Assembly (NCBI GenBank): GCA_027923505.1
Contig: BROI01000012.1
Coordinates: 496,001-560,000, forward strand
DNA length: 64,000 bases
DNA from: Mayamaea pseudoterrestris
Lineage: Eukaryota
Reading direction: 5' to 3'
Every line of letters begins with the position of its first letter. Position 1 is the stretch's first letter. The notes below the pieces were generated by a model. It was given only the letters and a program-made list of their open reading frames with translations, was not told where the DNA came from and did no database searches. The translations under genes and the position numbers were made by a program. This document shows, in pieces, positions 6,506 to 8,427 of this stretch.

Positions 6506-8427
6506 TTAAGCTTCAGCTGTAGGCTGGGCAACGCTCGGCTTGTCTTCTGTACGTTTTTCAGCCAGAACGGATTGGACAAGGTCAAAGTAAGGATGCTCCG
6601 ACTTGTGCGGCGCGCCATGTTGCTGTTGCTGATCCTTCTGCTGTTGAACGAAGTCTTGAAGCGATGATGCAACCATGCTTGGTGAAAGCTGCTGCTGCTG
6701 CTGCTGCTGGAATCCCGCCTGTTGCGCTTGAAGAAGCCGCTGCTGGTCCGCCTGGTTGAACAGTTGAAAATGACCGCCCGGCCACTGCTGATGCTGTATG
6801 ATCGGCAAGAGTCCCGACATGCCACCAAAGCCTGCAGAGAGCAATTGATGATGCTGAAATTGTTGATTTGTGGCTGCTTCGGCAGAATATAGAGATGTGC
6901 GATCGGGAACGGTGATCTTTGACGGTGTGACGCCACTCTGCATTGCCAAATGACGCAAGTCTCGGTTTTCTTCCACCAAGCGATCAACACAGCTGTTAAG
7001 TTCCTTGTTTATCTTCATGAGTTTGGCATTAACAATGGCTTGTTCCTCGACTTGATCACCGAGGACTGATATGCGATCCTTGGTGCGCTTGCGAGCGCGA
7101 GCAGCATTCATGCGATCTAAGATAATGTTGGTGACTCATCGTTAGCGTTATCTAAAAGCAGCAATAACGGATTCTACGAGTTACTAGAGTGTCCTCGCTG
7201 ACGATTTCATGTTGCATGTCGTGTCGCATGTCACCGAACTTTGCCACGTCAAAAATGTCAAAATGAGTCATCATAAATACAAGCACAGAAGCCATTTGTC
7301 GTTACTTGGCCCGCGCCTTCACAGTCAATCGTTCGATTCTGCATGCACAACACGCGTCGTACCTCGTGCCTCTCGGGACCAACACCTTGGCTGCTGCTTG
7401 ACTGCAAGTAATTAATGCTATAGAATTATTTGGTTATAGAATATTGCTTTAAAATGATACAGTTTGTATTCTCTAGCAATGGAATGTGTACAGGAACCGG
7501 AGCCATCACGGCGGGCGCACCACGCACCACCCACACGACGACACCTTTGCGAACCGACCAGCGGGATCATGACCAGCAGACTGACTTTTTCAAGTAAAAG
7601 GGGATGCTTTCTCTAAAGAGCTAAAGAGTATTTGGCTGGTTGGAAAGGACTCTTGGCACTTGACGCGGCAAAAGAGGCTCCACGACGAACGAGCGGCTCG
7701 TCCGCGGTCCGCGCGACGAAGTCACGACACGAAAATGGCCATAGTTTGACTAGCCACAAGCAGGTCCAAACAAGACCAAACCAAAACCTTTTGTGATCAG
7801 CTTGTACCTCAAGACCTTGGTTATCTATAAATCATAGTATCATAGTTGTATTCCATCTAATAGTCAAGTTATGGTAGGAGCAAAGGATGCAACATGGAGG
7901 CTGCTCGTGTCCGACTTGATTTTTGAAGTGTGACATTTCGCCGCGAAATGTCGCGCATTGGGGCGCATTAGGGATAAAGGATGCGACATGAAGTCGAACA
8001 TTCGTGTGATGACTCATCACGGTTCACAAATACGTCATCACAACATTGACATGCGACACGACATCGCCAGCGAGGACACTCTACTGAAATGACTTACTAT
8101 ATGCGCGCTTCGCTTCCAGGCGTTGCTGCGGGTCATCCATTGAACCATCGTCTTTTCCTCGGCTGTCGATGCTTTCTTTGGCGATGGAAGCGTCAGACTC
8201 ATGGCTCCGTTTCTTGCCGTCTGTGACGAGAACAAAGTATGAGTGGAAGCTGTAAGAGACGTTCGACATTGCATTGGCCTTGCTGCCGGTGCCAGCCTAG
8301 AATGTTTCGCGTTACATGGCCCATTCACATTCGTGTGTGACTCTTGCTCTAGCTCTTGCTTAAGGTCATCTACTCGCTCGCTCCTTGCTCTTTATTCCTT
8401 ACCATTTGTGGCCTCTTTCTCGCTCAT
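6506..8427 (-). CDS. bZIP transcription factor, 3 exons (8427-8403, 8220-8098, 7116-6506), 252 aa
   Basis: GT-AG splicing (AATG|gtaagg..cacag|AC; TATA|gtaagt..ttag|ATCGC) gives the basic region RLEAKRAYNRMNAARARKRTK, then a leucine zipper and a Gln-rich tail; exons sum to 759 nt, in frame. Confidence 0.9.
7185..8083. mobile_element. Inverted-repeat-bounded insert (putative MITE or long-range RNA stem) inside bZIP intron 2
   Basis: Exact inverted matches 7185-7200/8068-8083 (16 bp), 7216-7233/8047-8064 (18 bp) and 7263-7273/8007-8017 (11 bp); TA at both outer ends; no coding capacity. Confidence 0.55.

Follow-up and report, generated by a model that had tools for sequence, protein, structure and literature searches.

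The window, by which we mean the whole 64,000-nt stretch of DNA that was analyzed, includes a bZIP gene on the minus strand. Its exons (8427-8403, 8220-8098, and 7116-6506) join to encode 252 aa identical to NCBI protein P0001, an entry for the diatom Mayamaea pseudoterrestris that is described there as a hypothetical protein. The coding part of exon 1 (8403..8427) and exon 2 (8098..8220), both delimited by spliced contigs and translation, flank a 182-nt GT-AG intron (intron 1, 8221..8402) that is likewise seen in the spliced contigs. Exon 3 (6506..7116) supplies the remaining basic region, the zipper, a Gln-rich tail, and the stop codon. Between exons 2 and 3 lies intron 2 (7117..8097, minus strand), a GT-AG intron that interrupts an Asn codon in phase 1 and measures 981 nt, or 81 nt without the insertion described below. 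A first-pass annotation of the window had modeled this gene, had intron 2 splitting the AAT codon of the Asn, and had marked a CTAAC branch-point motif. The split indeed falls after the A, and the motif is found at 7145-7141 (7141..7145, minus strand), in intron sequence that does not belong to the insertion, where its sequence suggests that it would serve as the branch point. The range of 71-236 bp that had been given for the other introns was checked for intron 1 of the bZIP gene alone, at 182 nt.

Proteins of the bZIP type are recognized by a basic region with the pattern N-x7-R followed by a zipper. The N-x7-R pattern is present across the intron 2 junction of the gene for P0001, and the protein matches the Pfam bZIP_1 profile (PF00170) weakly, with an E-value of 0.00068 and 20.1 bits, below the 27.6 cut-off. 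If intron 2 were retained, an in-frame TAG at 8081..8083 (minus strand) would stop translation before the basic-region Asn and leave a 54-aa product.

Five public sequencing runs contain the stretch, and four of them (X1, X2, X4, and X5) were compared, with X3 left out. The GT-AG joins 7116/8098 and 8220/8403 occur in contigs of two of the four (X4 and X5), which are counted as RNA solely from their exon joins. The gene model is therefore right, and the predicted 8098/7116 junction is confirmed by spliced contigs of another haplotype. These contigs differ from the window at no fewer than three sites (7036, 7058, and 7061, with X4 differing additionally at 7040); the three to four differences among the variants listed fall at most 81 nt from the junction. 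Because the spliced contigs represent another haplotype, they do not show the 981-nt form being spliced. Among the window and the four runs compared, at least three haplotypes of the bZIP gene can be distinguished over 6837-8218, and X1 and X2 each carry two forms of 8126-8248.

The intron within the Asn codon is, judging by gene structures, a trait of the bZIP gene family. Four paralogous bZIP-like genes lie on one other contig of the genome (C36, loci L073-L076), three of them inside 5 kb, and in all four the corresponding Asn codon is split by a GTAAG intron, the lengths being 168, 100, 119, and 93 nt. None of these four introns contains an inverted repeat. The 100-nt intron, in L074, is open and in frame with the upstream exon. 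Another homologue, P0003, has 28 residues opposite the single Asn of P0001, and these extra residues would fit an 81-nt intron read through by the gene caller.

What distinguishes intron 2 of the window is its long-range self-complementarity. The first-pass annotation described three pairs of inverted blocks, and all of them pair perfectly: 7185-7200 with 8068-8083 (16/16), 7216-7233 with 8047-8064 (18/18), and 7263-7273 with 8007-8017 (11/11). The equal 29-nt spacing on both arms and the hairpin near 7932-7952 are also present, and the match 7202-7217/7981-7996, presented as a competing pairing, is paired at 14 of 16 positions. The longest exact inverted match in the intron is 18 nt. None of 300 dinucleotide shuffles exceeds 13 nt, and none of the window's 63 other tiles of 981 nt exceeds 12 nt. 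The left terminal repeat (7186..7233, plus strand) consists of a perfect core at 7186-7200 and a second block at 7216-7233, and the right one (8047..8082, minus strand) consists of a core at 8068-8082 and a second block at 8047-8064. The spacer between core and second block is 12 nt shorter in the right arm than in the left, and complementarity ends one base outside 7186/8082.

Such a structure invites the hypothesis, offered as the second alternative in the first-pass annotation, that a long-range RNA stem or switch has been selected to control the splicing of a transcription factor. The intron does fold better than 20 of 20 shuffles (z = -4.4), and the predicted terminal stem closes the intervening region while leaving the donor, branch motif, and acceptor outside. 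Retention, with its truncated product, would give such a control a clear outcome. An Rfam search found no family near its cut-off, the best match reaching 15.7 bits against 38.

The region closed by this stem has copies elsewhere. A sequence search of the organism's own genome (G000), the check that had been proposed for a transposon, found five full-length copies on five contigs: the one in the window and others on contigs C4, C19, C3, and C8. Five is a lower bound, and pattern searches together with a search using the most divergent copy gave no further full copy. The copies are 897, 873, 1079, 1047, and 1076 bp long. Over aligned columns, the window copy shares 95, 89, 79, and 74% of its bases with the other four, and the flanks of the five are unrelated to one another. 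All ten ends start with AGAGTGT. The perfect terminal core extends for 15 bp in the window copy, about 40 bp in the C3 copy, and 46 bp in the C8 copy. The element in the window (7186..8082) is thus defined by its copies and ends as an 897-bp, non-coding DNA transposon with terminal inverted repeats, whose longest stop-to-stop frame is 75 aa; across the five full copies, the longest frames run from 75 to 97 aa. The earlier bounds of 7185-8083 captured the core region, with the exact ends lying one base further in on each side.

Directly flanking the element are two copies of the trinucleotide ACT, at 7183..7185 and 8083..8085 (plus strand), which form a direct repeat. Each of the five copies is bordered by such a 3-bp repeat (ACT, AAT, ATT, ATT, and ACT), and all five conform to ANT. 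By our own arithmetic, with all four bases taken as equally frequent, five such repeats would arise by chance about once in a billion cases. The TA duplication proposed earlier does not survive this comparison, as that TA is composed of the last T of the ACT target and the first A of the element. A Stowaway-like MITE of the Tc1/mariner type would require a TA duplication, and this dinucleotide is indeed present at 7185-7186 and 8082-8083. We nevertheless regard this assignment as extremely improbable, given that the direct repeat is 3 bp long with a variable middle base in five of five copies, and that arriving at the 81-nt empty site described next requires the removal of 900 nt (897 + 3).

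An empty site was looked for in related DNA and was found. Introns and intergenic DNA are evenly covered in the DNA-like runs X1 and X2, which come from two studies. In both of them, and thus in two of the four runs compared, a single base separates position 7182 from 8084, which yields an 81-nt intron; contigs show presence and not absence, and an insertion allele could go unseen in X1 and X2. The empty intron occurs in other DNA from the same organism or one very close to it, which makes the insertion polymorphic. That a normal-sized intron would remain after removal of the element had been predicted correctly, with a size of 81 nt instead of the estimated 82 nt or so. The empty target reads GCT, compared with ACT in the window, and the empty-allele contigs differ from the window at no fewer than three further sites (7131, 7138, and 7147, within 52 nt). 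Given this base and the nearby differences, the empty allele represents a different haplotype and not the exact pre-insertion sequence. Excision of PIF/Harbinger elements is usually precise (PMC2836001, as far as consulted), so the GCT base is less likely to be a footprint than an ordinary variant. Read depth over the element is several-fold above that of the flanks in X1 and X2, where depth does not equal copy number. A contig of X5 has a loose end at window position 8083 that continues into sequence flanking the C19 copy, indicating that the C19 insertion is common to G000 and the otherwise RNA-looking X5.

These observations bear directly on the proposed RNA switch. Neither the empty allele nor any of the four paralogous introns has the stem. 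The C4 and C19 copies, which adjoin unrelated ORFs on contigs where a bZIP search of the genome gave no match, lie outside any bZIP gene and still keep the blocks, with 15/15 terminal positions and 16-18 of 18 positions of the second block paired. In both of these copies, the arms of the supposed switch stand at 16/16 and 15/16. Pairing of the two ends gives a duplex of -68.6 kcal/mol in the intronic copy, no stronger than in the other four (-68.6 to -97.0 kcal/mol). The ends of the C3 and C8 copies have changed in sequence and are still self-complementary, which means that apparent covariation arises without a bZIP intron, from symmetry at the DNA level. Moreover, the contigs of the spliced runs X4 and X5 do not cover 7117-7184. 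Most of what the first-pass annotation had named as speaking against its own proposal was observed, with other genomic copies and an empty site, and stem-free paralogues and the same pairings elsewhere were seen as well. As an evolved feature, the RNA switch is largely refuted, and we consider it very improbable that selection for splicing control produced the stem.

A host gene of the bZIP type and an intron containing hairpins also bring to mind the unconventional introns of HAC1, XBP1, and bZIP60. Introns spliced through IRE1 in bZIP genes have non-GT-AG junctions located at two cleavage hairpins. Intron 2 has a GT-AG junction, a GTAAGT donor, and a CTAAC motif, and its position is common to four paralogues. 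Its hairpins lie inside the mobile element and not at the splice sites, and we give almost no credence to an IRE1-type intron here.

Three features of the element point to a particular branch of DNA transposons. Han et al. (2015; PMC4482050) described, in the portions available to us, the Pangu group of the PHIS superfamily (PIF/Harbinger, ISL2EU, and Spy), whose members make ANT duplications, have ends 11-40 bp long, typically beginning with AG or GG, and, when autonomous, carry two ORFs. The families listed there include Pangu_ESil, which is Harbinger2-1_ES of Ectocarpus, and Pangu-1_PInf of Phytophthora. In the stramenopile Ectocarpus, ANT-targeting and TNA-targeting Harbingers have been told apart (PMC12477816, in part). 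The diatom element shares with Pangu the 3-bp ANT duplication (in five of five copies), ends that start with AG, short terminal inverted repeats, and a stramenopile host. Its terminal repeats agree with the described length range, except that the perfect repeat of the C8 copy, at 46 bp, exceeds it. The empty site in X1 and X2 has the exact length expected, 81 nt, with a target that is one base off. Unlike autonomous Pangu elements, the diatom element lacks a transposase and a second ORF, and no partner was found for it in G000 or among metagenome contigs. The element is probably a non-autonomous Pangu element that works like one, an assignment to superfamily that is made from its ends and target site alone.

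The family also resembles MITEs in being non-coding, having terminal inverted repeats, and duplicating its target. Classical MITEs are 100-600 bp long and reach high copy numbers (PMC5172404, as consulted in part), and the label was rejected for a family of 873-1079 bp with five full copies found, a count that is a lower bound. Tourist-like MITEs such as mPing of rice are likewise non-coding elements with terminal inverted repeats and 3-bp duplications; they lie in or near genes, including introns, have predicted secondary structure, and are moved in trans by PIF/Harbinger proteins (PMC2836001 and PMC5172404, in the parts consulted). In contrast to the diatom family, whose members are 74-95% alike and whose target is ANT, elements of the mPing type target TWA and number in the thousands. 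The transposon that the first-pass annotation had offered as its first alternative accordingly stands as a non-autonomous inverted-repeat element in an otherwise normal small intron, and falls both as a classical MITE and as an element with a TA duplication.

Further sequence features are consistent with a transposon. The motif TGTCGY has nine occurrences in four of the five copies, a number reached by none of 300 shuffles; the C8 copy has four occurrences, reached by 21 of 300. Such repetition would be expected of binding sites for a transposition protein. Enrichment of TGACGT was tested in the family and none was found, with 19-300 of 300 shuffles reaching the counts.

The other genomic copies have settings of their own. 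The C8 copy (L007:1339-2414, equal to G000:C8:303219-304294) seems to interrupt a minus-strand ORF in its seventh codon, with MPTEGL before the element and SQILETIGRPL plus about 300 residues after it, and without a Pfam match. The duplicated target of this copy creates GT and AG at opposite ends, and splicing there would cause a 1-base frameshift. The C4, C19, and C3 copies (L002, L004, and L005) have long ORFs that start about 90-125 nt away from them, and the C4 copy sits between two divergent ORFs, all of these being uncurated stop-to-stop frames.

An autonomous element with AGAGTGT ends was sought in G000 and none was found. Transposase profile searches of this genome gave one match for PF04827, three for PF13359, and none for PF13751. 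Inspection of four Harbinger-like or ISL2EU-like remnants or ORFs, on contigs C11, C4, C1, and C6, revealed none with the ends of the family. On C11 (L020:3062-4829) there is a tail-to-tail, two-ORF PIF/Harbinger remnant with the C-terminal part of Plant_tran. It was rejected as a partner, being cut off by a 109-copy repeat that looks like an LTR, judged by its neighbors, and to which the apparent AGAGT end belongs. The C1 element (L022:376-5476) is 5.1 kb long; its inverted ends measure 43 bp, its DDE_Tnp_4 transposase is broken, and it was set aside for its different ends. Different ends also exclude the element on C6 (L078:914-2366), which by our reading starts with GGG and has a TCA duplication; in this 1.45-kb deleted Harbinger-like element, TGCCAAA arrays occupy the subterminal region on either side, and the transposase-like frame is truncated. 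The C4 ORF (L021:3617-4996), an intact 460-aa DDE_Tnp_4 frame, has no flanking inverted repeats and was rejected as well; it is possibly a domesticated Harbinger transposase. Two single ends, on C7 and C10, were discarded as family members, having no second end in 9.9 kb and no similarity to the family. A control search with the reversed pattern gave six matches, so the C7 and C10 matches may be due to chance. Among metagenome contigs, the exact end returned no loci and a looser pattern returned 25, none of which resembles the element.

Near the ends of the element are sites of the form TGA(G/C)TCA, which we take to be the AP-1/GCN4-type bZIP motif. A motif search located TGAGTCA at 7264..7270, within the third inverted block, and TGACTCA at 8010..8016, near the other end. 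Sites of this form occur near nine of the ten element ends in the family, at element position 79 in four of the five copies and close to the other end in all five. In the four copies that have two sites, this number was reached by 4-6 of 300 shuffles, figures that are weak because the motif was chosen after being seen and the copies are related. The native intron has a third site, at 7132. It is conceivable that the family spreads candidate bZIP sites and that the bZIP allele thereby gains a feedback loop or stem-dependent splicing. Were this true, a regulatory link in a diatom would have been caught while still polymorphic. We think it quite improbable, and the simpler reading is that these are subterminal sites of the transposon's own machinery.

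The explanation that we favor, and consider very probably correct, is that a non-autonomous, cut-and-paste transposon, PIF/Harbinger-like (PHIS) and with ends of the Pangu type, entered an ordinary 81-nt bZIP intron. Its point of entry was an ANT target that lies 12 nt past the donor GT and was duplicated, as the direct repeats attest; the family is dispersed over the five loci observed and varies in presence/absence at the bZIP site. Going by what is described of PIF/Harbinger biology (PMC2836001, in part), movement would have occurred in trans, through a DDE transposase and a DNA-binding partner holding the ends. Pairing of the element ends in RNA would then be a by-product. Because other DNA samples are without the element, this is a recent insertion and not a built-in splicing switch. 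The insertion allele is probably still spliced, because the donor, branch point, and acceptor lie outside the element, and it probably survives as near-neutral variation. The terminal stem may perhaps help splicing of this allele.

An insertion of the same transposon could instead be harmful, lowering or misdirecting splicing or expression of the allele through retention, through cryptic AG/GT sites at the element ends, or through silencing. The intron has become twelve-fold longer, the element begins 12 nt from the donor GT, and on the coding strand the duplicated target generates GT on one side of the element and AG on the opposite side. In addition, no spliced contig of the window's own haplotype is present in the four runs compared. 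Since retention leads to a stop after 54 aa, the allele would be null if its splicing were strongly impaired. However, the native splice signals are intact, and the NCBI model for P0001, which is an annotation, uses the 8098/7116 junction. In Ectocarpus, where short non-autonomous DNA transposons similarly occupy introns, intronic transposon content has no strong relation to expression and little overall effect on it, according to the portion of PMC12477816 consulted. Ectocarpus introns are long, with a median of 524 bp (PMC12477816), whereas those of the diatom bZIP family are 81-182 nt, and tolerance of 981 nt is consequently less certain than in Ectocarpus. On balance, harm to the allele seems unlikely, although it deserves more weight than any alternative discussed above.

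A family of ANT-targeting, Pangu-type elements is apparently undescribed in diatoms, a provisional statement from a literature search that did not extend to Repbase, Dfam, or the supplements of PMC9724779. Titles and opening lines of abstracts in the published literature on diatom Pangu, MITE, or non-autonomous Harbinger elements revealed nothing on this family. The main text of PMC9724779, on Mayamaea pseudoterrestris, does not mention MITE, Harbinger, bZIP, or intron. No diatom appears among the 29 Pangu family rows listed in the consulted part of PMC4482050, whose genome list had two Thalassiosira species and Phaeodactylum.

The finding is mainly a correction, in that a striking long-range stem in the intron of a transcription factor gene is a pair of transposon ends. 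It also provides a natural pair of alleles, with an intron of 81 nt in one and 981 nt in the other, through which to ask how a long structured intron is accommodated in a genome whose introns are short.
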